Positions 8,499-50,364 of a DNA stretch of 64,000 nucleotides are shown in pieces. Within the stretch, counting starts at the first letter, position 1; every line of letters starts with the position of its first letter. A program made the position numbers and the translations under genes. Source of the stretch: Haliotis cracherodii (lineage: Eukaryota); assembly GCF_022045235.1 (NCBI RefSeq), contig NW_027266279.1, forward strand, positions 11,470,001 to 11,534,000, in the 5' to 3' direction. Under the pieces are notes generated by a model. The model saw only the letters and a list, made by a program, of their open reading frames with translations, was not told the origin of the DNA and did no database searches.

Positions 8499-10968
8499 AT
8501 GGGTCGGTTGCTACGCAAGATAGCAATGAGAGCCGGGACACAGGTTCTGTCTCCCATACCGGAGTTGCCCGAAGGGTCCCGATCTCCTACCCCAGTGAAT
8601 GGTAAGTTGCTCGAAATATCCGCAAGGTCCATCAATGGGTGAGTTGTCAGGCAATAGAAACATCTATATCATATACTGTTTGAAAATAATAGATTAAAAT
8701 ATATATAAGCATGTGGTCTCAATTTTGAGATATACGATTCATTACCAGTTAAAATATCTTCATATTTTGTGCTCTTGACATAAAAAGCCGTCATCTGTTG
8801 ATAAAGTGAGATAAAATGCAAGTAAGATCATATTTGTTCAAAATCCATCGTTAGTGATGCTCCCGCAACCTTTAGTTTTTTGTTTTATGAATTGGTCATT
8901 AGGTTTGTGGCGATACTTTTTGCAAAGAAACATATGACAAGTTGTTTTAAACTGCATGTTCTTCATTATAACTACTCCAGTACTCGTGTCTAGTTGATGT
9001 TATTCTGTAATTAATTCAACCAATCATTGTTCTGTTTCACGCAGATGCTTTCAAGACAAGTCCAAAGAGGCCAGAAAGCCCAAAACTCAGCGAAGAGGAA
9101 TGGTAGGCTCTGTTGGCACTTTCAGTATTGGCAGACAGAACGATCATAAAATGTTTCTTGTCTTTGGCTACTTTAGTAGTTCTGAAGTAGTTCTAAAGTA
9201 GTTCTTTGGTAATAACTACTTTTTAGTTCTTCAGTAATAAGTAAAATGGGGGTTAAATTATTCTTGTCCCTTACCCCGCCCGTCAAGCAATATATGTCAA
9301 CTTTTTCCACATACTTTGTGACCATATTTGTCAACGCATCTGAATTCCAATTCAACATTTCACAAGCGCCATTTGAATTTGAGGAGATGCACCAAACGCA
9401 GAATTAACAAAATGTTTAATTTAGAATTGCTTTTGATTCTTGTGAACCATCCACGTGAGATCGTTAATTTCGATTGAGTGTGACAAGTCATGTCTAAAAC
9501 TTTGCAATCAATCTAGGGTTAGGTCATATTGCCCCCGCCCTGGCAAAGTGTCTCCAATACACCAGTTATTAACTTTAACATTAATCCTCAGTGTTATCTT
9601 ACGACTATTCGATCTTGTGTAACCCATTAGTTTGATATTTCAAGCTTAGAAAATAAGTTCGTTCATAAAGAAACAGTGTATTTTCGCTTATATAATGTTT
9701 TATTAAAATCTACCAACAACATGTTAATTTTTAAGTCTTGTTTTCTTTTTCTTATATTCGGTTGTTAAAAAATCTAAAGTCCTAGCTTTGTCTTTTACAT
9801 TTTTATATCTTGATGATGTCATCCCTACTTCATTTGTTTCATTGACCAGCAATCAAACTATAATTAAGACATGTCGCCTTTTCGCGAACACCTGGTATCA
9901 TCATTATTTTATAGTGATTCACGATAGTCGGAATCGTGCTATCGCCTCTGCTTTCAGCAGAGATTTCCTATGAATATGGAAAGGGTTTTGTCGCTTATAT
10001 TTACGTTGCTCATGTGTGTACTGATCATTTATAGTTCACTCTTTTCTTTGACCTAAAATCAGCGATAATTAAGACTGATCTTACGTTGCCCACATCTCTG
10101 TTGATTATTAAATGTTTATTCTTTTCATTGAGCAATAACCAGAAATGATTAAGACTTGTCTTCACGTTGCCAACTATCTGATGAAAACATCCCCGTCTGC
10201 TCTTACAGCTTCATGAAGCACCTTCAGAGTCTCGCTGCGGACTACAAAAAGGAGATGGAACAGGTGGGAAGACAACTCCGTGTGATGCAGAGAAGAAATG
10301 CCCGGATTGAGAAGAACGCCGAATTCTACCACGTAGAATACGACAACTACAAGCGGAACTGGGACAAAAACCAGGAGAAGATTCTGGGACTGAAGACGCG
10401 TCTGGACAAATACCAGCCGCTGAAGAAGGTCATTGACAGGTTGCATTCCCTCCAAGATGAAAACAAGCGGCTGAGGGCCTCTTATTTCCAGACTGTTCTG
10501 GACAACAATTTTCTGAGGAAAACCTGGAAGAACATGGAAGGGGAAGAGATTGAGAATGAGGAATTTCCGGATGTTGAGAACATGAGAGAGGCAATAGTTC
10601 CAAGACCTCCCACAGCTCCCGACAAGGGCCGGGCGGGATCAGCCAGACGACGCCCATACACTGGCAGGTCCAGGGAGGATCGGCCTCATCTGCCGCCTAT
10701 CACAGAGAACAACAAAACGGTCACACCTCACAAGCAGACGACAGCTGAATCACCTGAGAAGAAACAAAGCAAATCTCCGGTTCATCTGCCACAACTCGGG
10801 ACAATGGTCCCCACTCCTCCAACAGGTCCACGGAGAAATGCTCCCAGCAGACGACAGAGCAGAATTCCACTGGCCTTACCACCAATCCGTGGTGCGACTT
10901 CTGTGGATAGTCTTCGGCTTCCCCGCCAGGGTGTGCAGGATATTGGCCGCAAGTTCCGGGATCTGTAA
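8499..10968 (+). CDS. Uncharacterised coiled-coil / Pro-Arg-Ser-rich protein, paralog A; coding exons 8499-8601, 9045-9102, 10209-10968 (306 aa)
   Basis: The spliced frame MGRLLRKIAMRAGTQVLSPIPELPEGSRSPTPVND-AFKTSPKRPESPKLSEEEC-FMKHLQSL... is open with GT-AG introns. Exon lengths of 103 and 58 nt and splice phases are identical in paralog B. Most changed exon-1 codons between the copies are synonymous (6 of 9). Confidence 0.85.
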
Positions 10969-13900
10969 GGGACAAGGATGTCTCGTGATTAAAGATGGGT
11001 GGACTACTAAACATGGATGGATGACTTTATAATATACATTTCCTATACAGATATCTGACATCAGTCACATCAATCTTCTGAAATGATGTTTTAGCACACT
11101 AAATTCAAGATTAACGTAAAAATCCCAATTTGCCTTTCCATGCATCCTCAATACCCATCCACCCACCAACATCTATTTACCCACCCCTGTCGTTCCGCCA
11201 ACTATCAGGATTGCTATTGCTCTCGGGGAATAAATGACTACCTACAATATGATAATCCCCCATCTCTCCCCAACCAGATGCCAACATCAAAGTGTTGTCT
11301 GCTCAGTGCTCACAAAAGAATGAATTATCCCCCCCACCTCTGCCGCTTGGGTCATTCTCCGGCCTTTCTTTCTTGTTGATGAAAGATTATGTAATCTATC
11401 AGTAAAGTCTGAGATTACTTGATAGCTCAAATGAGCATACAGTTTACCTATGGTTTAATGTGTGGTGCCTCTGTTTTAGATTCATATCGCATGTGGGTTT
11501 CACACAGCCATATTATAACATGTTTCTTTGAGACATCTCATGCTCAAACGTGCGTATGTTGCCAATAGACATGCTCTCCAAATAATTCGGCAAACTACAA
11601 AGTTCGTGTCTTTGAAAGGCATTTAGAAGTGATACACTTAAGGAAGAGAATTAATGGATGTCAGCTTCTTTATTATGAGGAACACAAAGTTTCGGAAGTA
11701 TGCTTACTCCTTACGCAGCTTTTAGAAATAGCCCAGCAATATCACGGTGGGGCTCATCTGAAATGGTCTTCAGAAACGCGGGCCTTTGGCGAACGTTTGA
11801 AACAAAGACTGTCGCACCGTCTCAATTTAACAGTGCTTGTAGAATATAGTTTTACATTTTTCAATGTGCTTCTTGTTTTTATGAACGAATTTCCTTACAT
11901 TAGCGTTCATAGGAAGTATTGTTGAAAAGCTTTCCGCTATAATTTGTTAAAAATATATTTCTTTATATGAATGTTATAGTCTGTTGTTAATCAAGTTGTT
12001 AAATATTTTTGTATAATACGTTAAAAACATTTTCATCAGATTTTTGTGATTTATTGAATGTCCATGCTATTAACGTATACTTGTATATAACGCGTTGTTC
12101 AATGTATAAATTGTTGAATAAAAAACCCTAACATTACATATCTTGGGATATTCATTTCCGCAATGTTTAAGCTTTCTTGGCCTGTCTTCAGATTAGTTGT
12201 GGTCTGCTTTAATGTATTTATTGCAAATTCAAAATGTGAAACAGCTGATCTTCCAACCCCATTCTAGTTCAGGGCTTGAGAGTCAGTGTCCAGGTTGACT
12301 GGGCTCATGTGTACCTGAACTGGTCCACCACAACAGTGGAAGTCTTGGGTCTGGGGGACGTGAGCGAATCCGTTCCATTTGGTGACAAACCGGTTTACCG
12401 AAATGTCTCGCTTTATGAATATGGAATCCTTCGGTTTCTAACAGAATATCCGCCTTGATTGATAATGTATCTAAGTCTTCCTTGTCGATTGAATGAGGCT
12501 TTATTTGACACATGCTTCAAAATGCCTTGATAACAAAGAAAACCAAAATGCTAGCCGCCTAGCTACTGTAATATGTGCAATTCTGCAATCGTTTTCACTT
12601 CCCCCGAGTCCTTTCTTTGTGTAAAATCCATTGAAGTTTGTGTTACGTCATCTTGTTGCAAAGTCTGTTTGTTCAATGCTAAGCCAGTTTCAGAACGGAG
12701 GTTGGACTCGCCTTTTGTCAGCACTGTTCTGTATACTGAGTTCAACCTTGGGGAGATGCATGCACTTCCACATACGAGACCCGTGAAGATCCGGGGTAGA
12801 ATAGGTCTTCAGCAATCCCTGATTGCCGTATAAGGCGATCGATGCTCATGATGTCACTGACCTACTGCAAGTACCTGTTTTCTAAACCAAAAAAAAAATA
12901 CAATCCTCCAAAACCTTTAATATAAGCATGTGATTAATCCTGTTTTGTTTGTTTGAAGCATAAATTGTTTATTAAGCAAAATTATCTCTGCAGCCAACTT
13001 TTCTTGCATCAAAACATGGGCTGTGTACTTGCATGCAGATGACCATGGAGTACGCTGATCCCGTGAAGATCCGGGGTAGAATAGGTGTTCAGCAACCCAT
13101 GCTTGCCGAAAAAGGTGACAATGCTTGTCGTACGAGGCGACTAACGGGATCGGGTGGTCAAGCTCGCTGACTTGGTTGATGCATGTCATCGATACCAATT
13201 GCGTGGATCGATGCTCATATTAATCACAGGACTGCCTGTTCCAGACTCGATTACTTACAGACCGCCGTCATATAGCTTGAATATTGCTGAGTGTGGCGTT
13301 AAACAACAAACAAACAAACCACATACGACAAAGACCCCTTCAGCCAAAGCGGGAGCGATGGTATGATGAAAGAAACGAAGGTATCGCGCGCTGGTTTGTT
13401 CGGTTTTAATGAGAGACTAAGCAGTGAGCGGTTTATGCATGTTTTTTAGTTAGCGCAATATATGCAGTGTCGATAAGGGTGTGGCTTCATGGACCGCGCA
13501 CTGCCGATTTCAGTTCCCTGGGGTCCACCCGGTTTATTCGGCTACCTGCAAACTACATCGGTACGACTCATTGGATTTGAGGAGCCGTGCCTTTGATGGT
13601 CAAAGGGAAATAACTGTAAATTCTTATTACCTTTTGCTAAACAGACTTGTCTCCCTTCGTGACAAGGACGTCAAGCTCCTTCCCAGCGCGTGACAACTTC
13701 GTTACACTCTCGATAGAGAGCTCCGCGAATGCGAATCCGCTTGCAAGGACATAACTCATGATTTTTCATACCAGGTGAGCTCGCTTTGATTGGCGTGTGA
13801 AGTTTTAAGCGAGACACTATCTCACCATCGTTTACTCTTCCAGTAACATAAGTTCGATCGTAACTGTAGTTCCACGAACGGTCGATTTCTGGGAGGACTT

Positions 13901-14079: not shown

Positions 14080-14226
14080 CAGTGTATCGGGATGGGAAGG
14101 AACTTGTTCAGTAAGTCAGTGTATCGGGATGGGAAGGAGCTTGTTCAGTAAGTCAGTGTATCGGGATGGGAAGGAGCTTGTTCAGTAAGTCAGTGTATCG
14201 GGATGGGAAGGAGCTTGTTCAGTAAG
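14080..14226. repeat. 4 x 37-bp tandem repeat
   Basis: cagtgtatcgggatgggaaggagcttgttcagtaagt at 14080, 14117, 14154 and 14191. Confidence 0.95.
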
Positions 14227-17200
14227 ACAAGGGGAAACAGCTCAATCAACGCTTTAATTCATGCATTCATATCACTAACACAGGATCCGTGAAGATTCCG
14301 GGGTAGAATAGGTCTTCAGCAACCCATACTTGCCGTAAAAGGCGACTAACGGGATCGGGTGGTCAGGCTTGCTGACTTGGTTGATGCATGTCATCGATCC
14401 CAATTGCGTGGATCGATGCTCATGATGTCATTAATTGGATTGTCTGGTCGAGTCGATTATTTTATAGACCGCCGTCATATAGCTGGAATATTGCTGAGTG
14501 CGGCGTTAAACAACAAACAAACAAACAAAACAAAATATGCTGATTGTACACATGTATGCTTTAATGGACCGTGCACTGACGATTTCAGTCGCAAGCTCAG
14601 ACGTTTAGGTTATACAGTTTGGCACTAACTCAATGAAGGTTCTTAATCCAATGAACTCATACAAAATGAAAGTCAATTCTTAAGTGTACACACCAAAATC
14701 ATTTTCTTTATTTGAAACAAAACGCAATTTTAGAATAGGTTGATATCAATGTTTGAAACTATACACTCATTTTTCTCACAATGAGAGTAGGAAGCTCCAA
14801 ATAAGTGGAAATGTTATGCCTTTGTGAGGCCTTCGTTTTCAGATCTAAACAGGCCAGAGTTATACCCCTTAGATTTTGATATGCCAATTTAACTGGGACC
14901 CTGTCTAGTCACAAGGCAAAAGATATTAAGTACCAATTTATGGTGAGACAACATGGCATCCGATATATAAAAAAAATGTTGAAAAAAATAAAATAAATAT
15001 TTGAAATTGGATAATATATTTTTTTCAAATTCTGACCTTCTCAGCTGAATTTCTGGGGGGGGGGGGAGAGAATCTGTAATGCCCACCCTCTAAAACTCGG
15101 TCCTAGCTGACTGGAAATATATACCCAATTATTATAATAACTAGCTTGATTTTATTTGTAGAGTCTTTCATACATCATGGATGCTATGCAGATACCCTGT
15201 GTTCAGTGTGTTCTTTTTGTTAAAATACCTTATATGACATCATAAAAATTATTTTTCCATAACAAAATACAGTATGTGCTATTGTTTAAATTGGCAAAAG
15301 CTATGAATACACAATGCCTTTTAGAAATCAAGTGTTGGTTTAAATCCTGGATGAATGCCTAGACAAAATTTGGTTTATCTTCCCTTTGAACAGTTTTCCC
15401 ATCACATGAAGATGTGTCAGACTAATGCATGAGTCAAATCTAAATCGACGCTGGTCCCTGATCAGTAGATCCTGCATGACAAAGGGACACAACTCCTTGT
15501 TGTACCCATCACCCATTGTACAAGTTCACAATGAAAACAAGTCCATGAAATTTAATGAATGTCACATAGCATTTCTACACAGAGTAAATATAATGCGATC
15601 CAAAATTCACCATAAAGGAGCCATGCTTTTGGCAAGAATATTCCTGATACACAGTATCTGTCAACCTAACCTCTTCATGCTAATACTGTTGCCTTGAACT
15701 CTGTGTTGAACTTTACAAACTTTACAAACTGAAAACACTCGTTGATAAAAGTCGAAAAACTCCTCGGCAAGCGTCAGAGATTTCCCACTTTTATCAACTT
15801 GTGTTGATATATTTTATATCAAATAACACTCGGGTGAGAATTTCATTGTCCAGTACCATTGAATTCCTTCAATTCTTATCACTATTTGATCTCTAATAAG
15901 TCGAATCAGGATTTGGACACATTTCTTTTATCTTAGGTCTCTTTTAGTTCTGACTATTGTCAGTCTGTTTAAGCATGGGAGTTCTGATTTGATGGGTAAG
16001 ATCGCTTTGTGGAACAATGACTCGGAGACTCCTAAGTACAAAACTGCCCTGATAATCAAACTGTATAAACTGGTGAAACTACAATGCATCATGTGAGTGA
16101 GTGAGTGAGTGAGTGAGTGAGTATGGTTTTACGCCACTTTTAGCAATATCACAGCGGGGGACACCAGAAATGGGCTTCACACATTGTACCCATGTCGGGA
16201 ATCGAACCTGGGTCTTCGGCGTGACGAGCGAACGCTTAAATCACTCTGCTACCCGACCGACCCTGTCAATGTTAGAACGCCTGTACATTGAGTAGAACTT
16301 GTCACAGGTAATTATCTCAACTGTTACTTCATGTTGTCAACTTTATTTGATTTTCGGGGAGGGGTGTTTTGTTTGGGATCAGCATTTTTTACTGTATATG
16401 TTTTTTTAGGAGCTCAGTTATTTTTCCAAACATAAACAGGTGCTCAATTGCTTATTTTATTACACAAAGATAAATAAGGAACTGTATTTTTTAGCAAAAA
16501 CAGAGGCCTGATTATTTTCTTATTACACAAATCCCTGAACCCCCCGCTGAAAATCAAATAGTTGCTCCCTAAGTAATCTTTTATTAACTCAACACTATAT
16601 TTGCTTGCTTAACATGAACTTCTCAATACTGTAATCTACTGTAGTTCTGAAATAATATTCAGGGTTAGAAATTGGCACTAGTCCTATTATTGTCCTTGCA
16701 AATCTGCCCAATAGTTAAAGTATCATGAGAGTGAGACGAAATTTGCCATTTTTAGGGGTTTTGCTATATATTATCATTATAAGGACTAGTGGACCAAAAA
16801 TGTTAAGTTAATACCGCTGATATTGTAATGCTTTGATATTGAGAATCTGTTTCAAATCTGTGCTTCACACTCAGATATGTCAAACCTTTTCTCAGGTCCA
16901 TGGAGTTCAAACCAACAGCGCTTAGCTGTGTGTATTTCAACATGTGTTCAATGCATTCAGTGCCAAACATATTTAGGGATACACGTTAAACAAGGCCTGT
17001 GTGGAACATTGTGGTGATAATGTGGAAGGAATAGAGCCACATCAACAAATATATAAATATTTACATATAATACAACAATAACAATGTTTAACAATTGTGA
17101 GTATGGTTTTTTGTTGCCTCTGGCAATATTTCATCAATATCCTGGCAGTGGACACCAATGCTTCACACACAACACCCATGTGGCAGACTGGGCACTTAAC

Positions 17201-18280: not shown

Positions 18281-20279
18281 ATATCAATGTAATCAAAAAT
18301 ACTTCCCAGGGCAATCATGGTATATGCATGATACATGTTTGATATCCCTGTGACGATGATGTCCAAGCATCATATGGTTTCAAAAACAAATTGCGGAAGC
18401 AGTGATTCATATCTACATGGGGCTGTTTAATGAACAAATTTCAACAAAATCAAGTAAGGCCTTATTTTTTAAATAGTTTACAGATATTTGGCCAATACTA
18501 GAGGGACCATTAAAGGTTGGTCAAACTTAAAATAGAACACATTTTGTAAGTAAAGTATAGAAAAGATTTTTAAAAATACATCCAAATCAAGTCAAGCGGT
18601 CATTTTATGTGAATTGTTTTTGTCAGGGGATCTGTGAGCCAAATATTTGAAAACAAGTGTATTATCATGATTATCATGGCAATGTCAGGTCAAACTAAGA
18701 GTGAGTGAGTATGGTTTGACGCTGCTTTTAGCAATATTCCAGCAATATCAAGGCGGGGGACACCAGAAATGGGCTTCACACATTGTACCCATGTCGGGAA
18801 TCGAACCCGGGTCTTCGGCGTGACGCTTTAACCACTAAGCTACCTGACCACCCCTCATACAAAGAACATCAAAGACATTAGACACTGTGCAACAATGAAA
18901 TCTCATATGGCTCTTTCCTTCATGGCAGTGAAAGCTAACCTATTTAAATACATGAGTTTTTCTACTCGTACAACATCAATAAACTTTGAATACGAATAAC
19001 AAAAGCGAACATCCTTGGATCCAAAAATATGCAACATTCCCCAACTGACATTTTATTTGTTTTCCACTATTACCATATGTATGGTTTCTGTTGTCCACAA
19101 CACTCAAAATTCCACCTCCATGACAGTGGCCTCAATATAATCATTTCTGAACTGGACAAACCAGTGATTGATATTATGAGCCACCGTTGGGGTATGAAGA
19201 CAAAAAGTGGACCAAGTCACTGATTCTGACAACCCGAATCATTAAGTTGCCTGTTTGACAAGCATAGGCTGCATGGGACCTGTTCTTACCCGGAATCCCC
19301 ATGGGGACGATAAATAACGATAAGTAGAGGAGTCACAGAGTATCGCACAAAAAATCCCCTTCTTCGTCCCCCCTTTACCCCCCCCCCAGGTAAGAAAGAC
19401 TATAAACATGGTATACCATACGTACAGGTGGGTTAAAGACTATTATGAAACTGAAACAAATGTTAAAGAATACAAAGTGCTGACTGTTTCTAATTGGTGA
19501 CAAAAATTATATTTAATGCCAATACAAGATGGTTACCTGAGCACATTTTAAAATCCTACAAAATGTCTGTCAACATATCAAAGGTTATGATGATTGATGA
19601 ACAAAATGCCATCACAGAAGTGAGTGACTTTGATTTAATGCCATTTAAACAGTATTGCAGTACCACCTCAGCATGACGGCTTGATGTGGTAGGAAAATGA
19701 GGCATGTCGTAATGGAAACCCAGAGAATGTGTTTGGTGCAGACAAACCAAGGATCATAATCTGGTAGAATCGTGGACTCAAACCCATGATCATAGTATCA
19801 TGGCACCCTAAGCGACGCAATACATCACAGTGTATTTAGACCATTGGACCACACAGGCCCTGGGGATCACCGGAGTGCTCTTTTCTGAATATAATGTCAG
19901 CCCACCTCACACCCCTCCTTTTCATACAACTCACTCCAACACTACACAGTTTGTAACTCAAGACAATCTGCAGTGCAAATCCCCCATCCCCAATGTGGCT
20001 AGCACACCCCCTACCCTCTGGCCAGACTACCTGACAATACAGTCGTACTGCATTGCCTCTTTGCGATAATCATCCCCGATCTCCCATCAACTTGGACCAC
20101 AGTTTTGTTTCCAACATGTTTTTCTATCCCTCTTAGCATTACATCCTCTGAATCCAACCCATCCACTCTCTCTCAAATGAGTTTAATTTTATTCTCATTT
20201 TATTCAGACACAAAATGAAGCTGTGGTGGGTCCTGTGTATTTATAGTAATACAATGGAGAAATTCTACTGAAGATGCAC

Positions 20280-21326
20280 AATAGTCACTGTTAACATAGC
20301 TGAGAGCTGTGATGGGGTCCTACAGTCAAGACATGCCATACATCAGTCTGACTGTAGGGTCATGTCTTGACTGTAGGACCCCAATAGTCACTGTTGACAC
20401 AGCCGAGAGCTGTGATGGGGTCCTACAGTCAAGACATCACATACATCAGTCTGACAGTAGGGTCATGTCTTGACTGTAGGACCCCAATAGTCACTGTTGA
20501 CACAGCCGAGAGCTGTGATGGGGTCCTACAGTCAAGGCAAGACATACATCAGTATGACTGTAGGGTCTTGTCTTGACTGTAGGACCCCAATAGTCACTGT
20601 TGATACAGCCAAGAGCTGTGATGGTGTCCTACAGTCAAGACATCACATACATCAGTCTGACAGTAGGGTCATGTCTTGACTGTAGGACCCCAATAGTCAC
20701 TGTTGACACAGCCAAGAGCTGTGATGGTGTCCTACATTCAAGACATCACATACATCAGTCTGACAGTAGGGTTATGTCTTGACTGTAGGACCCCAATAGT
20801 CACTGTTGACATAGCTGAGAGCTGTGATGGTGTCCTACAGTCAAGGCAAGACATACATCAGTATGACTGTAGGGTCGTGTCTTGACTGTAAAATCCCAAT
20901 AGTCACTGTTGACACAGCCGAGAGCTGTGATGGGGTCCTACAGTCAAGACATGCCATACATCAGTCTGATAGTAGGGTCATGTCTTGACTGTAGGACCCC
21001 AATAGTCACTGTTGACACAGCCAAGAGCTGTGATGGGGTCCTACAGTCAAGACATCACATACATCAGTCTGACAGTAGGGTCATGTCTTGACTGTAGGAT
21101 CCCAATAGTCACTGTTGACACAGCCAAGAGCTGTGATGGGGTCCTACAGTCAAGACATCACATACATCAGTCTGACAGTAGGGTTATGTCTTGACTGTAG
21201 GATCCCAATAGTCACTGTTGACACAGCCAAGAGCCGTGATGGGGTCCTACAGTCAAGACAAGACATACATCAGTCTGACAGTAGGGTCATGTCTTGACTG
21301 TAGGACCCCATCTCTGCTCTCAGCTA
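20280..21326. repeat. 10 x 103-bp tandem array, each unit carrying a long hairpin; whole array bounded by inverted repeats
   Basis: Units start at 20280, 20383 ... 21207. The arm ggggtcctacagtcaagacatg pairs with catgtcttgactgtaggacccc. Confidence 0.97.
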
Positions 21327-21522
21327 TTGTCGTAATACTGACATCACAAGGACTGTTTTGATTGACATGACAAAACAATTAATCATTCCATGATTCCATT
21401 TGCAACCATGGTAACATCACAAGAAATCAATGAGATTTCAAATATCATGAATATACAACAAATGTGAATGACACTAAACGTCAACCTCTTTTTGATCATC
21501 TTGATAACTTGCCTATCAGCTG

Positions 21523-22019
21523 CAGAGCTCCAGATAAGCTGCGTATCTGCGTAAAATACGCATCAGAAATGCAGAAATATGCAGTAAAATAAAATCCAAC
21601 TAATACGAAACTAACATTACAGATACGCTACAAAAATAAAACTTGTGCGTATCATCAACATATTGTGAAGTAACCCTGCGTATTCGATTAGCAAATCAGC
21701 AACTTATTTTGAAATTATAAACAGGCATTCCGTCAATCTTGCCAAACTCCACGATGACAGTAACATCATGATCATTTGCCATCACACTTTCTTGTGGAAG
21801 TATCGTGGTATGTTTGAGTCCTATAAAGCTCTCGAACCCACACGACACCAGTTTGCAGGGACCAGATGAATAGTGTCTATAAATATTTAACTTAAATACC
21901 CACATGTGTAAAAACTAGTGGGTAACAGAAATTTGAATACCCAGATAGCATTACTGATATCCAATGATTTTAAAATGCATGGGTAAAATACCCACAACAC
22001 CAAAAGCTTTGGAGCTCTG
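21523..22019. mobile_element. Non-autonomous TIR element (hAT-like ends)
   Basis: CAGAGCTCCA/TGGAGCTCTG termini with cagctg on both flanks; subterminal tacgca/taccca repeats. Confidence 0.6.
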
Positions 22020-22903
22020 CAGCTGGTTTGTGACTCTTCGTGAAAACAAGTTTATACACCAAGTTGTAGACATGACAGGGCCGTAGCCACACTGTGTCAC
22101 AACAGGAAACATAAAGTGATTGCAGGTCGTGACACATGATGTGACATAGAACACATGAATACTCTGGTCTTACAAAGAGACAGATCCTGCATCCAATATG
22201 CACAAAAATGAAAATGGATGCACAAAAAATGCACAGTGCCTCCACTGGGATGCAGACAATTGTTATGCATTGAATGTTGCTATTTATTCATTTGGTACCA
22301 TTTTAAATAAATTCCCATATGTCCTGGTAATCATTTAAAAATTAGTAGATCCAGCCCCCCCTTTTGAAAACAAAATGTTGTATGTTGGAGGTAGTAAAAT
22401 TATCTGAAAGAGGATTTTGAGATTTTGGACCCTTCCCTCTTTAAAAATGCTGGATCCGTCCTGGCACAGTTGAATAAGTTCTAACATGGGCACTAGGGGG
22501 AAACTCCATATATATTTTTAACTTATAGCCCCTGAGCAAGCGAAATCTTACGTCACCTGGTGGAAGAGTAATGTATTCAATTTTTCACATTCTCTAGGAA
22601 CCACATTCTGAAGCTTTGGACCTCCATTTTTCAAAACTTGAGACCCATATGGCGTAAGGCTTTGAGTCAGCTTGACCCCCAAAATAAAAAACTCAGCTGG
22701 AGACCTAATCAAAACATGAAGAAGACCTACCATATATAAAGCAACAATGGTCTGAAAACTATACTATGCTTACAGTAAATTTTCCTACCAAAGAGGTGTT
22801 CATATTGATTCATGACCTTCACAATAAGATACCGATTTTGTGTCAGAATGTATCACAATGCACCAATATATCACTGAATCGTTCATGGGTTTTCAAAGCG
22901 TTC

Positions 22904-25294
22904 TCAAAAACCAAAATACGAGGCATTGGTGTCTCCTTGGACAGTATCATTGACCCCTGTGGCTGAGGAGCCTGGGACATTGTCTTGATCAACCGAGGAA
23001 TGGGAGCTGTTCTGTTCATCATGGTCATCTTGTTCATCATGGTCATCTTGTTCATCTTGTTCGTCCTGTTCATCTTGGTCTTCACTGTCACTTTTCTGTT
23101 TCTTCTTCATCTTCTTTCTCCCCTTCCTCCCCGGCTTCATCAGATGGCGAAAGGCGGGAATACCTGGCACAGCATTGTATGTGGCCTTCTCTTTCTCCTC
23201 CACCATATCAGGGTGGCGCTTCTTCATGTGCCAGTTCAACGAAGACTTCTGTCGACATCTATAATCACAGAAGTTGCACTGTACTGGCTTTGAATCTGAA
23301 TGGATTCTCAAATGAACATAGAGGTGTTTCTTGGCCATGAACCCTTTTCCGCACTGTTCGCACTTGTATTTCCGTATTTTGTAATGAGATATGTTCATGT
23401 GAATATCAAGTTCCGTCTTCTTCTTTGATCTAACGTTACAACCTTCGAAAGGGCATGGAAATGACCTTTTCCCAAGATGCACTCTGTCGTAGTGAAGATC
23501 AACAAGTCTTGACAACACAGACTTGTACTTACAACCTTCGAACTTGCAGTAGATGTACAACCCAGCATGCTTCTTCATATGGTTTCGGAAAGATGTTTTA
23601 CTCCCGGAAAGGTAGTTACAAATTGGGCACTTGAGGTCTCCTTCTCTTGCAATGTTGGTTATCCCATGAGCCTCTTCCATGTGGTTTCCCGCCGAGTCCC
23701 ACACTGTGAACGTCATCCCACAGATGTGGCACACACAGTTGTCAAACCGACTTGCACTGGATTCGTACGGATTGTGCACAGCTTTCACATGCCGCTGTAG
23801 TTTAGTAATCAGTGGGGTACTAAATGTACACCTTGTACAATACAGAACTTCCCCATGAGCAGTTTTGCGATGTTCCCGAAAGTCCCCAATGGTACCAAAG
23901 GTCCTACTGCAAACACTGCATCTGTATGGGTGATGGAGGTCCATGTGCGCAACTGCCTTTTCTTTATCAGGAAGAACCTCCTTGCAGTTCTTACACAAAT
24001 ACTCTGTCTCCGACTTCTCCTCAATGATGAGGCTATACAAAGTCTCAGTATCAAATTCCATGGCACCGATTCTGAAAGTTGATGATGTCTCGATCTCCTT
24101 CTTTGCAGGCTTTTCTTTCACTTCTTTTGGAGTCTTCTCAAAAGTCGGACTTGGTTGTCTGTGTACCAAGTCTTCATCCTGACCTAAAATAATACCACCT
24201 TCAACAGTATCCATGGTATCACAAACTGGAATTCCAATGGCTGGTCCAGTGTCAATATGAGTAAACTTTCGGACCAGATCATCGGAAAATGTCACTCTGA
24301 TCCCGGGGCTGTCCTCTTCTTCAGAGTCAGTATTCAAAGCACTATTACTGTAGGACTCATGAGACACCTCAGGGATTTTCTCAGTAGTTCCAGCTTGTTC
24401 TTCAGAACATCCTTCACTTGATGGCCTCCAAGAATTTCTTCCACTTTTCACACTGACTTCTTGAGGAGCCATACATGTTTTCTTTTGATCATCAGCACTG
24501 AAGTCAAATCTAGAGACTGTCGTATGATCAGAGGATGAATCCATCGGACTTATTGACTTTAAATAGTTCTGAATGATGTTGGTAATTTCATGCTTAGACA
24601 CAGCTGATGCTAGTTGTGAAGCTATGGCTGAGGTGTATGGTACTTTCCCATAATAACTTGCAGTGAAGGGGTATTGATCATCACAGAGCATATTGTGGAT
24701 ATCTGCCTGTCTGTTTGAACCTACAGTCTGAACTTTATCACAAATACCTTTTGACAATGACATGCCAGGAACTGTTTGTGTCACTGTAGGTTGAGCATTG
24801 GTCTGGAGAGTTGAGACATTCATAGGGATTGATTGTCCAGGAACCTCTAAAATTATTGGAGGTTGGGAATTTGAGTTTATAACACTCCCAGAGAGCGAAG
24901 ACTTTGGAACATGGGAGGTCATTTGCAGACTAGTCCCTTGTGCAGAATTTCTTAACAAAACACTCTTCCCAAAAGCTGTCATTTGCCCACTGGAGTTCAA
25001 AAGCAAAATGTTTCCCACAGGTTGCCTCTTGACAACAGTGGACATCTTTGGACTTTCAGGTTTGTTCTGAACTGACGGCATGGTCACTGAGAGTGCAGGA
25101 TCGCCAAACAGACCTGTTGATTGCTGGATTAATACTTCTGACTGTTGATTGGAATTTCTTGGTTTTTTTATGCTCATCTTTGTGCCCTTATTTGACGAGG
25201 GCTTGCTGCTTGTCGGTGTGACATACCTGTCCTGTGATTGATCAGTAATGTAGTAATCTGCTCCAAATACATTCAGGTCAGTGTCTTTTTCCAT
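22904..25294 (-). CDS. C2H2 zinc-finger protein, 9 fingers, 796 aa, single coding exon; ZFP91/ZNF653/ZNF692/ZNF276-like C-terminal fingers
   Basis: Nine CxxC/CxxxxC-H-H fingers. The last two (YKCEQCGKGFMAKKHLYVHLRIH, KPVQCNFCDYRCRQKSSLNWHMKKRH) match the CRQKASLNWHMKKH signature of that family. Basic NLS-like KPGRKGRKKMKKKQK and acidic DEQ repeat tail. Likely acceptor at 25607-25608 and upstream donor at 28532-28533. Confidence 0.92.
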   Translation of the reverse strand: MEKDTDLNVFGADYYITDQSQDRYVTPTSSKPSSNKGTKMSIKKPRNSNQQSEVLIQQSTGLFGDPALSVTMPSVQNKPESPKMSTVVKRQPVGNILLLNSSGQMTAFGKSVLLRNSAQGTSLQMTSHVPKSSLSGSVINSNSQPPIILEVPGQSIPMNVSTLQTNAQPTVTQTVPGMSLSKGICDKVQTVGSNRQADIHNMLCDDQYPFTASYYGKVPYTSAIASQLASAVSKHEITNIIQNYLKSISPMDSSSDHTTVSRFDFSADDQKKTCMAPQEVSVKSGRNSWRPSSEGCSEEQAGTTEKIPEVSHESYSNSALNTDSEEEDSPGIRVTFSDDLVRKFTHIDTGPAIGIPVCDTMDTVEGGIILGQDEDLVHRQPSPTFEKTPKEVKEKPAKKEIETSSTFRIGAMEFDTETLYSLIIEEKSETEYLCKNCKEVLPDKEKAVAHMDLHHPYRCSVCSRTFGTIGDFREHRKTAHGEVLYCTRCTFSTPLITKLQRHVKAVHNPYESSASRFDNCVCHICGMTFTVWDSAGNHMEEAHGITNIAREGDLKCPICNYLSGSKTSFRNHMKKHAGLYIYCKFEGCKYKSVLSRLVDLHYDRVHLGKRSFPCPFEGCNVRSKKKTELDIHMNISHYKIRKYKCEQCGKGFMAKKHLYVHLRIHSDSKPVQCNFCDYRCRQKSSLNWHMKKRHPDMVEEKEKATYNAVPGIPAFRHLMKPGRKGRKKMKKKQKSDSEDQDEQDEQDEQDDHDEQDDHDEQNSSHSSVDQDNVPGSSATGVNDTVQGDTNASYFGF

Positions 25295-28200
25295 AGCACA
25301 GTAATGAGGACACCAGGCAACACTATCAAAGTCACATTTTCAAGATAACAACTTTCTGTTCTTTATAAATATCATTTCTGGAGACACATACTGGGTATGT
25401 GCTTCACACAAAACTGACTGATTCATTATTTTCAGAATAAATGCATTTTGTATTTGCTTGGTGCAACCATATTTTCATCATCATCCTGTATGATGTATTT
25501 TCACAAATGGTTGCACAGTCATTCTGTTTCATTGTTTACCTTTGAACAACAAGGCAAACAATCCCTCACATCACTTGGGCCTGAATATTTGGGCACAGGA
25601 TATCATCTGAAATGAAATGAAAAATAACAACTTAGAAAATGAACTGTCTAAAACCATAAAATAAATGAGTGAGTTTTACACCGCTTGCAATATTCCAGCA
25701 ATATCGCGGCAGGGGACACCAGAAATTGGCTCCACACATTGTACCATGTCAGGAATCAAACCTGGGTCTTCGGCGTGACAAGCAAACGCTTTAACCACTA
25801 GGCTACCCGACCACCCCCAAAACCATTAAGAGTGTTAGTGGGTTACACTTTAGCATTATTCCAGCTGTATTTCCTGATAGGACTGATGAACCCATGTTGG
25901 GAATCCTACAGGAATGATGACCCATCAGGAAGAAGTGTTTCAGTGAATTTGGTTTCAGCGAATGTAAACATTGAAGATAATCAAACATTTTCAAAATAAA
26001 GTCAGCACCAACCATAGAAATGAATATGTATTAAATAATTAAATTTAAACAATGTTTCTCTGTGAGGGAGTGAGGGAAAGTTGTTTGACTCTAATTAGGC
26101 TAACCTGCAGCAAGCATGAGAAATGATCAGCCAAATCAATGATCAGTGTTGGGAAGCTCCTCTAACCCAGGTCCTGTACAGTTTTACAGTATTTTCTCAC
26201 AATAAACATCCTGTTGTTGCCAGGGTCAACTCTTAACATTACCAACAGCAGGGATTTATGTATAGGAAAAAGCACCCCTCTGTAATTTTGGTATAAATGG
26301 GTTTAACGCCGCTTTGAACAGTATTCCAGTTATATCACGGCGTGTCAGCTGAATGTGGGGGGAAAACCCGAAGCGATGCAGGTCACAGAAGTATGGTGCT
26401 GACAAACTTAGAAACATCATCAGCGCAAACCGGGATTCGAACCCATAAACACATGTTTCTGGCATACCCAAGGGACACAACTCTGCACAGCGAGTCACAG
26501 TGCCTGAGACGACTGGGCCACCTAATCCCCCAAAACACCTGGGGGGAGACAGGGATCACAATAGCAATATATATCATGTACCGGTGCAATCTATTATTGA
26601 AAAATGCAACCTAACATGTATGTCTATATTTTTTTTATTTCTGACTAACCACTACTTGACCATCAATCTTGCATTCAATAAATTTATCTGAACCAAAGGA
26701 CGAAAGCCTTTTCCTCTCCATAGGTCTGAGGTCCTGTTATCAGTGAAATACAAGTCACCTCTACAAGGCATAGCATTAGTTATTACTAAAAAACATGACT
26801 TGGGAACCTTTAATTCCATTTTTTCTGTATTGTTTTGCTTTTTTATTTAGCAAGAAAATAAATCTATAAATGTAAGCTTGAATCCTATGCCCTAGGTGAC
26901 CTGTTGTGGCTACACCCCCTTTGTGCCTCGATGTATGAAGAAGTCCACAGGCCATGGTGACCACAGCTATGTTAACCAAGTGGGTGTGTAGGTGCTTGTA
27001 CTAGTCCAGACTAGTGCTAATCCACTGATATACCGCTCTATGCACAAGATGCCCCTGTACATTTTACAGCTAGTCAGGAACGGTGAATTTTTATTAATCA
27101 TGACATCCACGTTTCCATGAAAACATTAAATCAGACTGAAATCATTAACACGATGAGAATATCAGGCACCTATCCTGGAAATTAAGTTTTGATGCAAGTT
27201 GATTGAGATGAAATGTGCTTTTCTGCCAAATAAACAAAATACATATTGATGTCCATAAAAAACACAGGCTTTAGAACTGAAATTAAGTTCTAATCTTAGC
27301 TTTTGTACTCTTTGCACTGCACTTCGTCATGTTTCATGATGTTCATTGATGCTCAATAAATAAGGGAAACTACCATATTTCCTCTTTTAGACACCCCTAT
27401 AAATTTCCTCATCCCAAATTCTACAGTCATACGAAAGGTACATAAAATTTGCAGGGAACAGTCATTGTAAATCACCAACACATCAGACTATAAAATAGGT
27501 AACTGTTACGTTAGGCATTCATTAATTTCATCACAGTGTGTGGGAGGAAAGACTGAAGTGATGCAGATCTCAGACGTTTACCACTTTGGTGAAAACCCAC
27601 AAACACAGGTATGGTGCAGAGCACTGCTGACAAACCAAGAAATAAAATCAGGCAAGCTTGAATTCGAACCCACAAAGGAATCTGGCGAGTCGAAGAGACA
27701 CTACACTGCACCGCAATAGTGGTTCCTTAGACAACTGAGCCACCAGTACCCCACAGCTTGTTTAACAACCTATAAGCTCATCTACCATGTGTAGTATTTG
27801 TCTACCTATTCAAATTACTATATTTGGTGCGGTCCAACAATATCTGATTATCCTAATTACACAATTACTATAACTCTCTTTCATAAAGGGCACTTATTAC
27901 AATGTCTAGACCTAAACTATCAATGATGCAGAGTGGAGTGCCATTTAACCAGCTATTTATTATATGAAACAAAAGTGAAGACAAGTTTGAAAACTATCCC
28001 TGCATATAATATAAAGCATCTAAAAGTCTGTTTCACATTTAACCAATGAAACATGAGAAGACATGTGCAGTGTATTAAGCAATTATTCTGTCTCTCTTGT
28101 CAGTTAGTTTACACCAGAACTGATCCTGACAGAATGAATTTGGCACACTCATAATATACACACACAAATATGAATTTATTTCAGAAATAATGCAATTCAT

Positions 28201-29530: not shown

Positions 29531-30365
29531 AGTGAGTGAGTGTGCTTGTACTTATGCCGGTTTTTAGTGCTAGCCGGGTGAGTGAGTGTGCTTGTAGTAG
29601 TGGCGGTTTTTAGTGCTAGCCGAGTGAGTGAGTGTGCTTGTAGTAGTGCCGGTTTTTAGTGCTAGCCGAGTGAGTGAGTGTGCTTGTAGTAGTGCCGGTT
29701 TTTAGTGCTAGCCGAGTGAGTGAGTGTGCTTGTAGTAGTGCCGGTTTTTAGTGCTAGCGGAGTGAGTGAGTGTGCTTGTAGTAGTGCCGGTTTTTAGTGC
29801 TAGCCGAGTGAGTGAGTGTGCTTGTAGTAGTGCCGGTTTTTAGTGCTAGCGGAGTGAGTGAGTGTGCTTGTAGTAGTGCCGGTTTTTAGTGCTAGCCGAG
29901 TGAGTGAGTGTGCTTGTAGTAGTGCCGGTTTTTAGTGCTAGCGGAGTGAGTGAGTGTGCTTGTAGTAGTGCCGGTTTTTAGTGCTAGCCGAGTGAGTGAG
30001 TGTGCTTGTAGTAGTGCCGGTTTTTAGTGCTAGCGGAGTGAGTGAGTGTGCTTGTAGTAGTGCCGGTTTTTAGTGCTAGCCGAGTGAGTGAGTGTGCTTG
30101 TAGTAGTGCCGGTTTTAAGTGCTAGCCGAGTGAGTGAGTGTGCTTGTAGTAGTGCCGGTTTTTAGTGCTAGCCGAGTGAGTGAGTGTGCTTGTAGTAGTG
30201 CCGGTTTTTAGTGCTAGCCGAGTGAGTGAGTGAGTGTGCTTGTAGTAGTGCCGGTTTTTAGTGCTAGCAGAGTGAGTGAGTGTGCTTGTAGTAGTGCCGG
30301 TTTTTAGCGCTAGCGGAGTGAGTGAGTGTGCTTGTAGTAGTGTCGGTTTTTAGTGCTAGCCGGGT
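29531..30365. repeat. About 18 x 46-bp minisatellite inside a SINE-D copy
   Basis: Unit gagtgagtgagtgtgcttgtagtagtgccggtttttagtgctagcc, period 46. Confidence 0.97.
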
Positions 30366-31300
30366 GAGATACCAAGCCGCTCCTTCACATGGATACCCTT
30401 CTCCGACACAGAAAACTGAATCTGAGCCGACCATTCCTTTTTATGCGAGTTATAACAACAGAATAACAACATGTACCATTCTTTTGGAACGACGCGGCCA
30501 GGGATTAAACCACCGAACTTCCGCTCGCAGAGGAGACTCTCTGTTCACTGGGCCATGGAGGCGGTCGTACAATCAGTATACATAAGCAAGGTAAAGCAAC
30601 GCCGCTCATCCGTTAGTGAGTGAGTGAGTTGGGTTTAACGCCGCTTTTAAAAGTATTCCAGTCATATCGCGGCGTGTCAGCTTAATGTGGGAGGAAAGCC
30701 CGAAGTGATGCAAGTTTCAGACGTTTACCACTTCGGTGAAACCCACGAGCACTGGTATGGTGCACCTAGAAACATAATCGGGGCGAACCGGGATTCGAAC
30801 CTACAATCACAGGTTCCTGGCGTGCCCAAGGGACGCAACTTTGCACAGCGAATCGTGGTGCCTTGGACGACTGGGCCACCCGTGCCCCCCTTATCCTTTA
30901 GCCTCGGGGTGAGTGAAAATTTGTGCTACTGGGGATAACTTGTATTATATGACCAAATCTAGTTGAGTTCCGAAGTCCACTGGTTTGAAATGAACACTGG
31001 AATGGTTGTGTTTAACTCATGGTGTCTACCTCAATGTTGACTTATTATCAAAAACTTGAGAACTCATTAGAGAAGTCAGGTTCAGAATGTGCATGTATGA
31101 GATGAAAACAACATATTTTTAAACAACTATTCATTTAATTTTATTCAACATCTGTGTTTTTCTATATATATTATAGATCAAATGGTAAACATTGTAAATA
31201 CAACAGTAACAAAGTTGAAAATATATTTTTGTATAGGTAAATGTAAAGTTTTCCCAAACGTTCCATTGTAAAAAGTACTCAGGAACAGAACAAGTCCATA

Positions 31301-31543: not shown

Positions 31544-32220
31544 TGTATGATAAAAATATGCAAGCACCTTGTAAAATAGTTTTGCGCTCAACAGGTATTG
31601 GTCTCATGCATAACCAACACACATCTTTTTATAAATGACTCTCACATGTGCATTAATAATCAAAACAGCACTATAATACACCGGGAATCCAAATATAGAC
31701 AAAATGTATGTAAATATTGTTCCTTTCCCATCTCTGGACGTGAGTGCATTCGCCTTGCAACGCACCCAGTCGGGGACGCGGAGCCATTCCAAACAAGCAT
31801 TTCACAGATACATTACTGCCCTCTGTTTCAAAGGGTTCTTTTGTGCATCCTTGGTCGGTATAGCGTTAATAGACGAGGAGAAACTTAGAAATTAAATTTC
31901 AGCCTTGTAGTTCGGAGGTACGGAGATTTTACCTGTAGGGGTGGGGGATGAGTAGACAAGGGAGACTGTACAAAGATCTGACTCCGTGAGTAGACGGATC
32001 GATTGATTGACGGACGGATGGATGGATGGATGGATTGATGGATATACAGAATGGATGAAAAGAAACGATTCGGATGATTGACGGAAGCCGTTAGTGATAT
32101 GCGCATGAGGTTTGACTTTGTTGAAGGTTGATGTGTCTGATAAGACAACAGACGTCAGATATCTATATTGAAAATGTACATTATAAATTCATCCATCCAT
32201 GTTTACTAGTCGATCCACCT

Positions 32221-34925
32221 TTAATCACGAGACACCCTTGTCCCTTGCAGATCCCGAGACTTGCGACCAATATCCTGCACACCCTGGCGGGGAAGCCGAA
32301 GACTATCCACAGAAGTCGCACCACGGATTGGTGGTAAGGCCAGTGGAATTCTGCTCTGTCGTCTGCTGGGAGCATTTCTCCGTGGACCTGTTGGAGGAGT
32401 GGGGACCATTGTCCCGAGTTGTGGCAGATGAACCGAAGATTTGCTTTGTTTCTTCTCAGGTGATTCAGCTGTCGTCTTCTTGTGAGGTGTGACCGTTTTG
32501 TTGTTCTCTGTGATAGGCGGCAGATGAGGCCGATCCTCCCTGGACCTGCCAGTGTATGGGCGTCGTCTGGCTGATCCCGCCCGGCCATTATCGGGAGCTG
32601 TGGGAGGTCTTGGAGCTATTGCCTCTCTCATGTTCTCAACATCCGGAAATTCCTCATTCTCAATCCCTTCCCCTTCCATGTTCTTCCAGGTTTTCCTCAG
32701 AAAATTGTTGTCCAGAACAGTCTGGAAATAAGAGGCCCTCAGCCGCTTGTTTTCATCTTGGAGGGAATGCAACCTGTCAATGACCTTCTTCAGTGGCTGG
32801 TTTTTGTCCAGACGCGTCTTCAGTCCCAGAATCTTCTCCTGGTTTTTGTCCCAGTTCCGCTTGTAGTTGTCGTACTCTACGTGGTAGAATTCGGCGTTCT
32901 TCTCAATCCGGGCATTTCTTCTCTGCATCACACGGAGTTGTCTTCCCACCTGTTCCATTTCCATTTTGTAGTCTGCAGCGAGACTCTGAAGGTGCTTCAT
33001 GAAGCTGTAAGAGCAGACGGGGATGTTTTCAACAGATTTGTTGGCAACGTGAAGACAGGTCTTAATTATTTCTGGTTATTGCTCAATGAAAAGAATAAAC
33101 ATTTAATAATCAACAGACATGTGGGCGTAAGATAAGTCTTAATTATTGTTTGATTGTTGCTCAGTGAAACAAATGAACTATGGATATTTTACGACCGAAT
33201 GTGACATCCAAAACTTAACGTGACACATTAACATGGTTTTGTAGGTTTTAATGAAACATTATATTAACGAAAATAAACTGTTTCTAAATTTATACGCTTA
33301 ATTTTTTATTTTGATAAAATATAATGTGTATTAATTCCAAACTAATGTATAACACACAGATTGAATATTCTGAATATGACACAGAATTAACATTTAATGG
33401 TCGTTCTGTCTGCCAATCTCTATGTAATACTGCCTACGATGCCTACCATTCCTCTTCGCTGAGTTTTGGGTTTTCTGGTCTCTCTGGACTTGCGTTGAAA
33501 GCATCTGCTTGAAACAAAACAATGACCGGTGAAATAAATTAGAGAATTTCATCAACTAGATACATGTACTAAAGTATTTTTAATGAAGAACACGCAGTTG
33601 TATGTTTCTTTTTAAAAAAAGTATCGTCTCAACCGTATGGATATTAGTACCTTTAGTCTCTTTCATGATTGCCGTAATATTTCAACGAATATGTGCTTCT
33701 AGTGAGTGAGTGAGTGAGTATGGTTTTACGCCGCTTTTAGCAATATTCCAGCAGTATGACGGCGGGGTCACCAGAAATGGGATTCACACATTGTACCCAT
33801 GTCGGGAATCGAACCCAGGTCTTCGGCGTGACGAGCGAACGCTTTAACCACTAGGCTACCCGACCGCCCCATATGTGTTTCTAATGCACTCAACCGCTGT
33901 TACAGGGCGCATAGAAATTATTTCATCGAGATTTACGCTTAAGCCATAGACAGACCCTTATAAACTTAATATGAAATTAAGTAAGGATAGATAACACCGT
34001 TATCAAACAAGTGATATACAGTGCAAGGTAGACAATTATATATACAGGTCGGAGGCAATGTTTATACAGTAGAGTAGATATCAGATGTAGTTATACTTGA
34101 TTAGTGAAGCCTGATATGTACACAAGGGTAGTCATGACATTACCGGCGAAGTCAGTAACATAAATTTTTTTAAAAACTACAAAAAGCCATCAACATCAAA
34201 AGACTAAAAACGTCGATCAACCGTGACCAAGAAATTGTTAACCTTCACAAAGAGATATTCGGAAATGTACCAATTCATAAATGCTATCAAAAAAGAGAAC
34301 ACAATGTTGTGGATAAGCACCATAAAGGAAGGATTTTAAGTGAGTGAGTGAGTATGGATTTACGCCGCTTTTAGCAATATTCCAGCAATATCACAGCGGG
34401 GAACACCAGAAATGGGTTTCAAACATTGTACCCATGTCGGGTAACCGCTTTTACAACTAGGCTGCCCGACCGCCCCAGGAGGGATTTTGAACTGGTACGA
34501 TGTGTCTTGTACTGCATCTCGTTTTACAAGCAGATGACAGCTGTTCATTTCGAGAGCAAAAATATGAAGACTTTTAAACTGCTCTTTTATATTGTGTTCA
34601 TTTGTTATATTAGCTGATATTAATCTCTGTACATGAGAAAATACCTCGTAATTCATACACAACATAATGCGGTTATAACGATGACAATACAATGACGTAA
34701 CAAATAATGCTGGGTAATATTGCTTTGGATTGTAATTGTCACTTCACAATACACCGTAGATCTAAAAATTGCGTCCATATAATTAGACATTTTAATATAT
34801 TAATTTCAACAACATTACTTACCACTGACAGGCGTAGGAGATCGGGACTCTTCGGGCAACTCCGGGATGGGAGACAGAACCTGTGTCCCGGCTCTCATGG
34901 CTATTCTGCGAAGCAACCGACCCAT
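32221..34925 (-). CDS. Uncharacterised coiled-coil / Pro-Arg-Ser-rich protein, paralog B; coding exons 34925-34823, 33504-33447, 33004-32221 (314 aa)
   Basis: Inverted copy of 8499-10968 with the same exon structure: MGRLLRRIAMRAGTQVLSPIPELPEESRSPTPVSD-AFNASPERPENPKLSEEEC-FMKHLQ...RDLQGTRVSRD. Confidence 0.85.
33702..33870 (-). mobile_element. SINE family A (tRNA-derived, about 165 bp, (ACTC)n tail), full-length copy
   Basis: A box TAGCCTAGTGG, B box GTTCGATTCC, GTC anticodon-like loop; 13-bp TSD atatgtg(c/t)ttcta. Other copies at about 16093-16263, 18698-18854, 25666-25818, 34339-34476, 35809-35925, 44084-44244 and 49693-49853 (all -). Confidence 0.9.
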
Positions 34926-49344: not shown

Positions 49345-50364
49345 TTAAATTGAACACTGAAATGAAATATGGTTATAAACCTATTCGAAATATACAGAGG
49401 CAAAATGTAACTTAACGATATCGGCAGAGTCAGCACTGTGATCCAATATCGACTCTCCGCTTGTCTCGAAATACGTTTAAATCGATGTGTTCTTGAATGA
49501 ACATATATAGATACATATTCAAAAAAGAACACTGACGGGGGATGGATAGAACGTATATTCCCAAAGTAATTCAAAATCTTTATTTCCGTAACTGCGATAT
49601 ATTTTGATTCAATGATTCACTTGGGTGTGCATCAGCACTGTGAAACAGTTTTATTGTTTATCTGAATGCATAATTTTAGGAAGTAAATTCGCGAGTGAGT
49701 ATGATTTTACGCCGCTTTTAGCAATATTCCAGCAATAATACGGCGGGGGACACCAGAAATGGGCTTCACACATTGTACCCATGTCGGGAATCGAACCCTG
49801 GTCTTCGGCATGACGAGCGAACGCTTGAACCACTAGGCTTCCCGACCGCCCCTGATTCGTGACAAAGCCGGTGTGATTAAATGCTCCGTAAAACACACCT
49901 GCATTTTAAATCGTGTTTCTTATCTCAGTAATGGTCAACAAAGGCTAAAGTCTTTATTTCCTCTCTTGACAAACAATGTGCGACATACCTAAATCCCGAT
50001 CAAGGCCTGACCGCAAGACGTGAAGACAGATATCCCATTAAGTGTAATCGGGCGTTAGGCCACACTTCCCATTGAACCGGCCAGTCACGATGACAGTGTA
50101 CCTGAAGCACTGCTGTTGGTGATTATATTCGCCCCCGACCCTCACCACCACCACAGACAACCTCTCCTTTCTCTTCCCTGTATGCTCTGGCTATCTTTCC
50201 GTTTCTTTCCGTCTGACTTTCTCCCTCCTTCTTACCTGACTCTCTCCTCTCTCCGTCTGACTCCCTGCTCTCTTTCACTCCTTCCGACTCTTTCTCCTCA
50301 TTCCCTCCTTTTGACTCTCTCCCCTCTTCGCTCCTGCCTCTCTCCCCTCTTTCTCTCCTCCTGT

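Follow-up and report, generated by a model that had tools for sequence, protein, structure and literature searches.

The window, i.e. the whole stretch of 64,000 nucleotides of Haliotis cracherodii DNA analysed here, carries a tandem array of ten 103-bp units (20280..21309) close to a gene for a C2H2 zinc-finger (ZF) protein. The ZF coding sequence is a single minus-strand exon encoding ~796 aa (22904..25294, stop codon at 22904-22906), and the protein has two matches only at E <1e-30, namely the 'zinc finger protein 639-like' of Haliotis rubra (82% identity) and a protein of H. asinina (79%). The minus-strand AATAAA pair that the original prediction placed just beyond the array is present at 20188 and 20199 (20188..20204), as is the ZF stop codon upstream on that strand. 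Another minus-strand AATAAA, not named in the original prediction, separates the array from the ZF stop (22283..22288), and others lie at 16342-16580 and 17698 (four) and at 19052 (one). By TRF, at least four other minisatellites with periods of 37-49 bp are located in the window: 37 bp x 4 (14080-14226), 46 bp x 18 (29531-30368), 49 bp x 32 (50202-51798) and 38 bp x 51 (59226-61178). The ZF locus is also bracketed by an inverted duplicate (10031-11065 / 32148-33181), 95% identical over 1037 bp, whose two sides hold open frames of 271 and 284 aa, the second without a Pfam match.

The claim of ten 103-bp tandem units is borne out by TRF, which reports 10.0 copies with a period of 103 bp, 93% matches and no indels over 20279-21310. 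The mean pairwise difference between units is 6.7%. The anticipated relationship between the two ends is also seen: over 40 nt, the left part of unit 1 recurs at the right end in reverse-complement form, with 2 mismatches. The proposed ancestor, a single palindrome of which the left part was amplified, is supported. Each unit consists of 17 bp of left host flank followed by the first 86 bp of a 103-bp palindromic element, and the inclusion of non-element flank is an addition to the original description, in which it had not been mentioned. The captured flank (20280..20296 in unit 1) has no counterpart in the dispersed copies found by a search of the same genome, where matches outside the array never begin before query position 15 and seldom before 23. 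The left terminal inverted repeat (TIR) of the original element begins with TAG (20297..20336, plus strand), while the outermost 17 bp of the right TIR are represented once (21310..21326, plus strand). Unit 10 and this outer right TIR together form the sole complete 103-bp palindromic element, which ends in CTA (21224..21326). The two breakpoints of the amplification share ~2 bp of microhomology.

Candidate decayed target-site copies flank the element in the form of the last 9 bp of the captured flank and the 9-mer to the right (21327..21335). These 9-mers agree at 4-5 of 9 letters (5/9 in nine of the ten units), and 5/9 is too weak an agreement to call a duplication; no target duplication is clearly left at the array locus. 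Pairwise, the units differ by 1-14 bases with derived variants in common, and the four-gamete test failed for 31 of 66 pairs of informative sites, indicating exchange between units or recurrent mutation. The units are thus mosaics sharing variants, and the array has the head-to-tail repeats of ~10-100 bp with exchange between them by which a minisatellite or VNTR is recognized.

The expectation that the monomer belongs to a mobile element with solo copies elsewhere in the genome was confirmed. A search of the same genome with the last unit yielded at least 105 matches, with 40 of 77 candidates scored; outside the array, the family is present in at least 37 stretches distributed over 17 contigs. 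Exact copies of a 22-nt core number 33, of which 26 lie outside the array on 13 contigs, while the reversed control does not occur at all. Most of the 37 stretches are short palindromes with TAG...CTA ends and some are one-ended; the short palindromic copies measure 78-117 bp, and longer members of 380-3440 bp carry the same ends with TIR matches of ~120-330 bp. In a scan of 45 loci, 37 two-ended copies were paired automatically with extrapolated ends, and 10 of them displayed a 9-bp target-site duplication with at most 2 mismatches, compared to 0.38% of mismatched flank pairs. These 10 represent 9 independent copies, two rows being one local duplication, and in the remaining 27 of 37, many with decayed ends, no duplication was present at the extrapolated ends. 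The length of 9 bp stands out: at this length mean flank identity was 0.51, compared to 0.21-0.35 for all other lengths between 2 and 12. The family is thus short and non-coding, bears TIRs, makes a target duplication of fixed length and is dispersed, as MITEs are. It looks old and of modest size, the copy counts being lower bounds. Eighteen hand-picked solo copies folded at a mean of -0.67 kcal/mol/nt on the minus strand, within the range of the array hairpins (-0.39 to -0.73), and it must be noted that these copies were found by their likeness to a palindrome and are therefore biased to fold well. The hairpin is inherited from the inverted ends of the element and did not newly arise in the array.

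TAG...CTA termini are a mark of Academ elements. Among these, AcademH is described with a 9-10-bp target duplication and a helicase, and AcademX with a duplication of 3-4 bp (PMC10045372). Features of the AcademH type are present in the family, i.e. the 9-bp duplication and the TAG...CTA ends; the same ends are found in three DUF6589-coding elements of ~6.3 kb in this genome, there with 3-bp duplications, and helicase-carrying DUF6589 loci exist in this genome as well. The source element is on these sequence features probably an AcademH-like MITE. It differs from AcademH in that the family is without coding capacity and has no TIR in common with any of 20 DUF6589 neighbourhoods (20 kb each, chosen from 47 matches). 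Likewise, tblastn of the open reading frames from these neighbourhoods against 8 longer family members gave no match, and 14 stretches of 10 kb next to copies with a single end, together with 4 more, contained only host genes and unrelated transposon pieces where an autonomous partner was sought. We infer the superfamily, since the array locus lacks a clear target duplication and the search for a coding partner with these ends was negative. Elements of the Foldback/Mutator type make target duplications of 9-11 bp, a length that the 9-bp duplication of the family also fits, and a Mutator-type parent may be an alternative. The foldback origin originally proposed holds in so far as a palindromic mobile element is concerned, but not as to the foldback type: modular TIRs with sub-repeats were not seen in the one member tested, where TRF detected nothing within the initial 214 nt of element L049, and 'foldback' was rejected as the family name. 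Academ elements were rare outside bivalves in one survey (PMC10294476), and the array documents what is probably an AcademH-type MITE family in a gastropod.

The DUF6589 loci of this genome also displayed structures of their own. A young, AcademX-like family of ~6.3 kb codes for DUF6589 at L118/L119, L126/L127 and L136/L137 (G000:C67, C1 and C4), with TAG...CTA ends, 485-bp TIRs that are >99% alike and 3-bp duplications. A block of 13.2 kb, 99.6% identical at two sites (L102:3073 to L103:6231 on G000:C8, and L104/L105 on G000:C13) and with further copies on C3 and C12, contains DUF6589 and helicase frames head to head; neither a TIR nor TAG...CTA was found at the ends of the block shared by C8 and C13. 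At G000:C12:46065420-46204157, at least 16 DUF6589 fragments with a spacing of ~5.2 kb constitute a tandem array of a transposase-like piece.

Tandem amplification of this family has taken place independently at other loci too. At L016:1549-1938 (G000:C80) the right arm only is repeated in tandem (65 bp x 6.0, unit -16.5 kcal/mol), at L035:516-676 (G000:C45) the left arm only (57 bp x 2.8, unit -10.9 kcal/mol), and L017:1500-1748 (G000:C17) is a 162-bp dimer of the whole element and its flank. The one-arm arrays show that amplification does not need a hairpin unit, and the window itself is rich in further minisatellites.

A hairpin of about 70 nt had been predicted for each unit, and this stands. 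In unit 1 it comprises 69 nt (20314..20382), with a 23-bp stem built from the inner parts of the TIRs around a weakly paired centre of 23 nt, and it recurs in every unit. It folds at -50.4 kcal/mol in unit 1 (z -9.1) and at -26.7 kcal/mol in unit 6, the most decayed one (z -4.8), and none of 200 shuffles was as good in either case. The complete element (21224..21326) folds at -69.4 kcal/mol, z -11. A stem of up to 22 bp, as originally described, applies to half of the units: 22 of 23 positions form Watson-Crick pairs in five of the ten, 17-21 do so in the others, and in none are all 23 paired. Outer TIR pairing is missing from units 1-9, and ~37 pairs before the centre are reached in the last unit only. 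When the whole array is folded on the minus strand, equilibrium pairing is predicted to be mostly across units (252 long-range against 154 local pairs), with an energy of -590 kcal/mol compared to -516 kcal/mol for local-only folding. The picture of ten separate hairpins is accordingly valid only if local folding wins during transcription.

If the hairpins were important, their pairing should be protected, and pairing broken as often as expected by chance had been named beforehand as the result that would speak against a functional array. This is what the substitutions display. With the unit consensus as ancestor (column 56 set to the state of 5 units and the dispersed family), 21 distinct substitutions were counted, of which 12 fall in the stem (46 columns, 9.4 expected), 6 in the spacer and 3 in the loop; the one-sided p for a deficit in the stem is 0.91, on 21 events and thus with low power. 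Of the 12 stem changes, read on the minus strand, 8 break a pair, 2 lead to G-U and 2 form the single compensated pair, located in unit 3. The presence of this pair and the absence of compensation in units 6 and 10 agree with the earlier reading. Both arms of the hairpin are struck, leaving no conserved 22-nt arm. The polarity of the substitutions is supported by a locus-specific contig of run X5, where the first unit has the ancestral, fully paired state (20336 C>A). The stems decay uncompensated and about as fast as the adjoining DNA. A test on 21 events is small and compatible with weak selection, and imperfect duplex is tolerated by miRNA precursors and ADAR substrates. Nevertheless, hairpins that are inherited element ends and decay at the pace of neighbouring DNA point to a probably ordinary transposon-born repeat and not to a source of small RNA.

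Evidence on transcription comes from contigs only (22 runs, 5 of them aligned to the window), the RNA nature of which is presumed. At 25609, beside a minus-strand CAG acceptor, contigs of X1, X4 and X5 depart from the window sequence and continue for another 94-102 letters, as expected of spliced RNA. In X5 the ZF exon has a depth of 17.5-20.7, compared to 0 for the bin 25976-26242; the piece 21978-23062 (17.5) includes the stop codon and crosses the AATAAA at 22283, and it is accompanied by pieces at 21543-21718 (20.2), 21286-21549 (14.1) and 20179-20383 (15.3). In X1 the exon has a depth of 11.1, with ~2 upstream of the acceptor, and values of 11.5 and 31.8 are found at 21178-21549 and 18830-20382, respectively. 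The X4 depths of 3-9 against 10.5 and 4.4 are ambiguous. X1 and X5 lack cover of the central part of the array, which carries no evidential weight, and no contig joins the ZF coding exon to the array, high-copy repeats intervening. The unstranded, presumed-RNA contigs suggest that the array is transcribed at the level of the ZF exon. The proposal that the ZF gene has a long 3′ UTR to which the array belongs thereby becomes probable from the cover on both sides by these unstranded contigs.

A ZF isoform ending near 20170 had also been envisaged. The X5 contig ends at 20179, which is 9-20 nt beyond the AATAAA pair, whereas X1 and X13 run on, and one of three presumed RNA runs therefore agrees with such an end, which is too little to count even as a faint indication. 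Beyond the pair, the segment 18500-20280 has presumed RNA cover (X1 18830-20382 at 31.8, X5 18854-19222 at 20.8). This cover to the left of the array may reflect a longer ZF 3′ UTR or a convergent transcript.

Unit-to-unit junction sequence was found in contigs of X1 and X17 (both organism A), X5 (C) and X13 (D). None of the junction contigs has the 31 letters on both sides needed to count as a bridge, the best reaching 29/223 (X1), 42/29 (X13) and 29/54 (X5). In X17, which is DNA-like, the junction piece has a depth of 112.9 against 35-38 for the flanks, a rough comparison of the longest pieces only, suggesting an array of ~4 units. In X1 the first unit carries the variant of window unit 10, and that of window unit 1 is found in the last unit. 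The array accordingly seems to predate the split of organisms A, C and D and to vary in copy number. Its apparent retention in at least three organisms speaks against a very recent origin and shows that it was not eliminated, a point that counts against the passenger reading favoured below. Forty of 69 differences in the contigs of X1, X17 and others were examined, and the X1 differences at places covered by X17 were all found in X17. The spectra of changes also resembled each other, with 7 T>C and 5 A>G compared to 8 and 7. Rare variants are lost from contigs, and the comparison is no test of editing.

Inverted Alu pairs in transcripts provide an analogue for a regulatory role of double-stranded RNA, and one may speculate that the array is such a module in the ZF 3′ UTR, with inter-unit duplexes edited by ADAR or bound by protein and with copy number tuning ZF expression. 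A contig depth resembling that of the exon to either side of the array (14.1 and 15.3 against 17.5-20.7 in X5, 11.5 and 31.8 against 11.1 in X1) and the predicted predominance of cross-unit pairing are in line with this. Furthermore, ADAR1 has been reported active in abalone (PMC6651903), which makes passive editing of array dsRNA plausible, and the transcript may contain several hundred bp of predicted duplex editable by ADAR1. However, passive editing would not demonstrate function, the pairing is not conserved, and the contigs are unstranded, only presumed to be RNA and do not bridge exon and array; we consider a regulatory module unlikely. The polycistronic source of small RNAs, either MITE-born miRNAs made by Drosha and Dicer-1 or an hpRNA silencing element-bearing transcripts, is very improbable in our judgement, despite the strength of the 69-nt hairpins. 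The miRNA precursors of animals have a stem of ~35 bp including a lower stem for Drosha, and units 1-9, with a 23-bp stem, a weak centre and no lower stem, are devoid of this long stem, which is present in the last unit only. Nor is the conservation of a mature arm observed, the stem having received 12 of the 21 changes with 9.4 expected, at low power. An Rfam scan of 19000-23000 gave 16 weak matches and none at the gathering score; the complete element scored 35.6 bits against mir-999, whose gathering score is 58 bits. Precedents for the miRNA and hpRNA variants do exist, since hsa-mir-548 derives from the MITE Made1 (PMC1784062) and a single hp-CG4068 transcript contains 9-20 tandem copies (PMC10317233), and copies of the family in other presumed-RNA contigs imply that targets would be available. 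On the other hand, the endo-siRNA machinery is reported lost in molluscs (PMC11114477; PMC12479628, the latter with abalone among the sampled animals), and in this genome one locus, one of 7 candidates, matched the Dicer dimerisation domain at E 6e-4 in a weak, exon-wise search. A selected polycistronic set of small RNAs or hpRNAs, as originally put forward, is for these reasons, together with the chance rate of stem changes, not upheld. Both ideas meet in the notion of an RNA rheostat in abalones, where unit number would set ZF output via ADAR or Drosha/Dicer-1, or the array would yield small RNAs against element-bearing transcripts. We find this quite improbable; if true, a lineage that has lost the endo-siRNA pathway would possess a locus of hpRNA type.

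Could the array instead matter as DNA, being a cruciform-forming, unstable element that acts as a hot spot of recombination or breakage or as a sink for transposase binding? Every unit is a quasi-palindrome, the units are mosaic and copy number seems to vary between organisms. A spacer between palindrome arms, here 23 nt, nevertheless disfavours cruciform extrusion, arrays built by this family from non-palindromic units expanded too, and a single 1-kb array is no satellite block, all of which makes such a role highly improbable. Assembly is difficult for palindromes and tandem repeats, and no aligned contig spans the array, yet an assembly artefact is hardly credible when units differ by 1-14 bases with shared derived variants and unit-to-unit junctions are found in contigs of four runs.

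The most plausible explanation of these observations, to which we assign a probability of about three in four, is that the array is a MITE-derived minisatellite, a neutral passenger probably residing in the ZF 3′ UTR, whose hairpins are the inverted ends of the element. An AcademH-type transposase would have placed the short palindromic element at the locus, and the first duplication may have occurred by slippage or template switching at ~2 bp of microhomology, perhaps aided by the hairpin. Copy number would then have changed through unequal exchange and gene conversion, and the compensated pair in unit 3 could stem from template switching within the palindrome or from chance. Any dsRNA formed in the transcript would be a by-product. 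As such, the array is a clean, small example of a tandem repeat born from a transposon end, in which breakpoints, parent family and sister amplifications are all visible, and a warning that tandem hairpins of pre-miRNA size arise without selection. Processing or editing, if seen in reads, would raise its importance, since two mollusc surveys (PMC11114477, PMC12479628) contain no known hpRNA loci.

The closest counterparts are other tandem repeats derived from MITEs, such as Xstir from Xmix in Xenopus laevis, miDNA4 in X. tropicalis and pearl/CvA in bivalves, among which Xstir is listed as derived from the TIR region (PMC9659126). The likeness consists in a non-autonomous element with TIRs giving rise to a tandem repeat, while the abalone array is confined to one locus and is not inside a mobile carrier. 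It also differs from repeats of the Xstir type in that the unit holds both arms and 17 bp of host flank, so that every unit keeps a hairpin. Tetris/TIR-220 of Drosophila virilis is similarly a non-autonomous element whose inverted ends feed tandem arrays, but its modular TIRs have internal repeats that spread as satellite (PMC4079207), whereas no sub-repeats could be seen over the initial 214 nt of the abalone element L049. The Drosophila locus hp-CG4068 resembles the abalone array in its tandem hairpins within one transcript and in a copy number (9-20) that differs between sister species, and it is distinguished by its need for Dicer-2, reported lost in molluscs, and by demonstrated small RNAs and a target (PMC10317233). 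The abalone unit, known here from sequence and contigs, is by comparison a decaying transposon end. The hsa-mir-548 copies are dispersed and have cloned mature miRNAs, whereas the abalone copies are tandem and their hairpins predicted. What the human family and the abalone array share is a short palindromic MITE that, on read-through, gives a hairpin like that of a pre-miRNA (PMC1784062).
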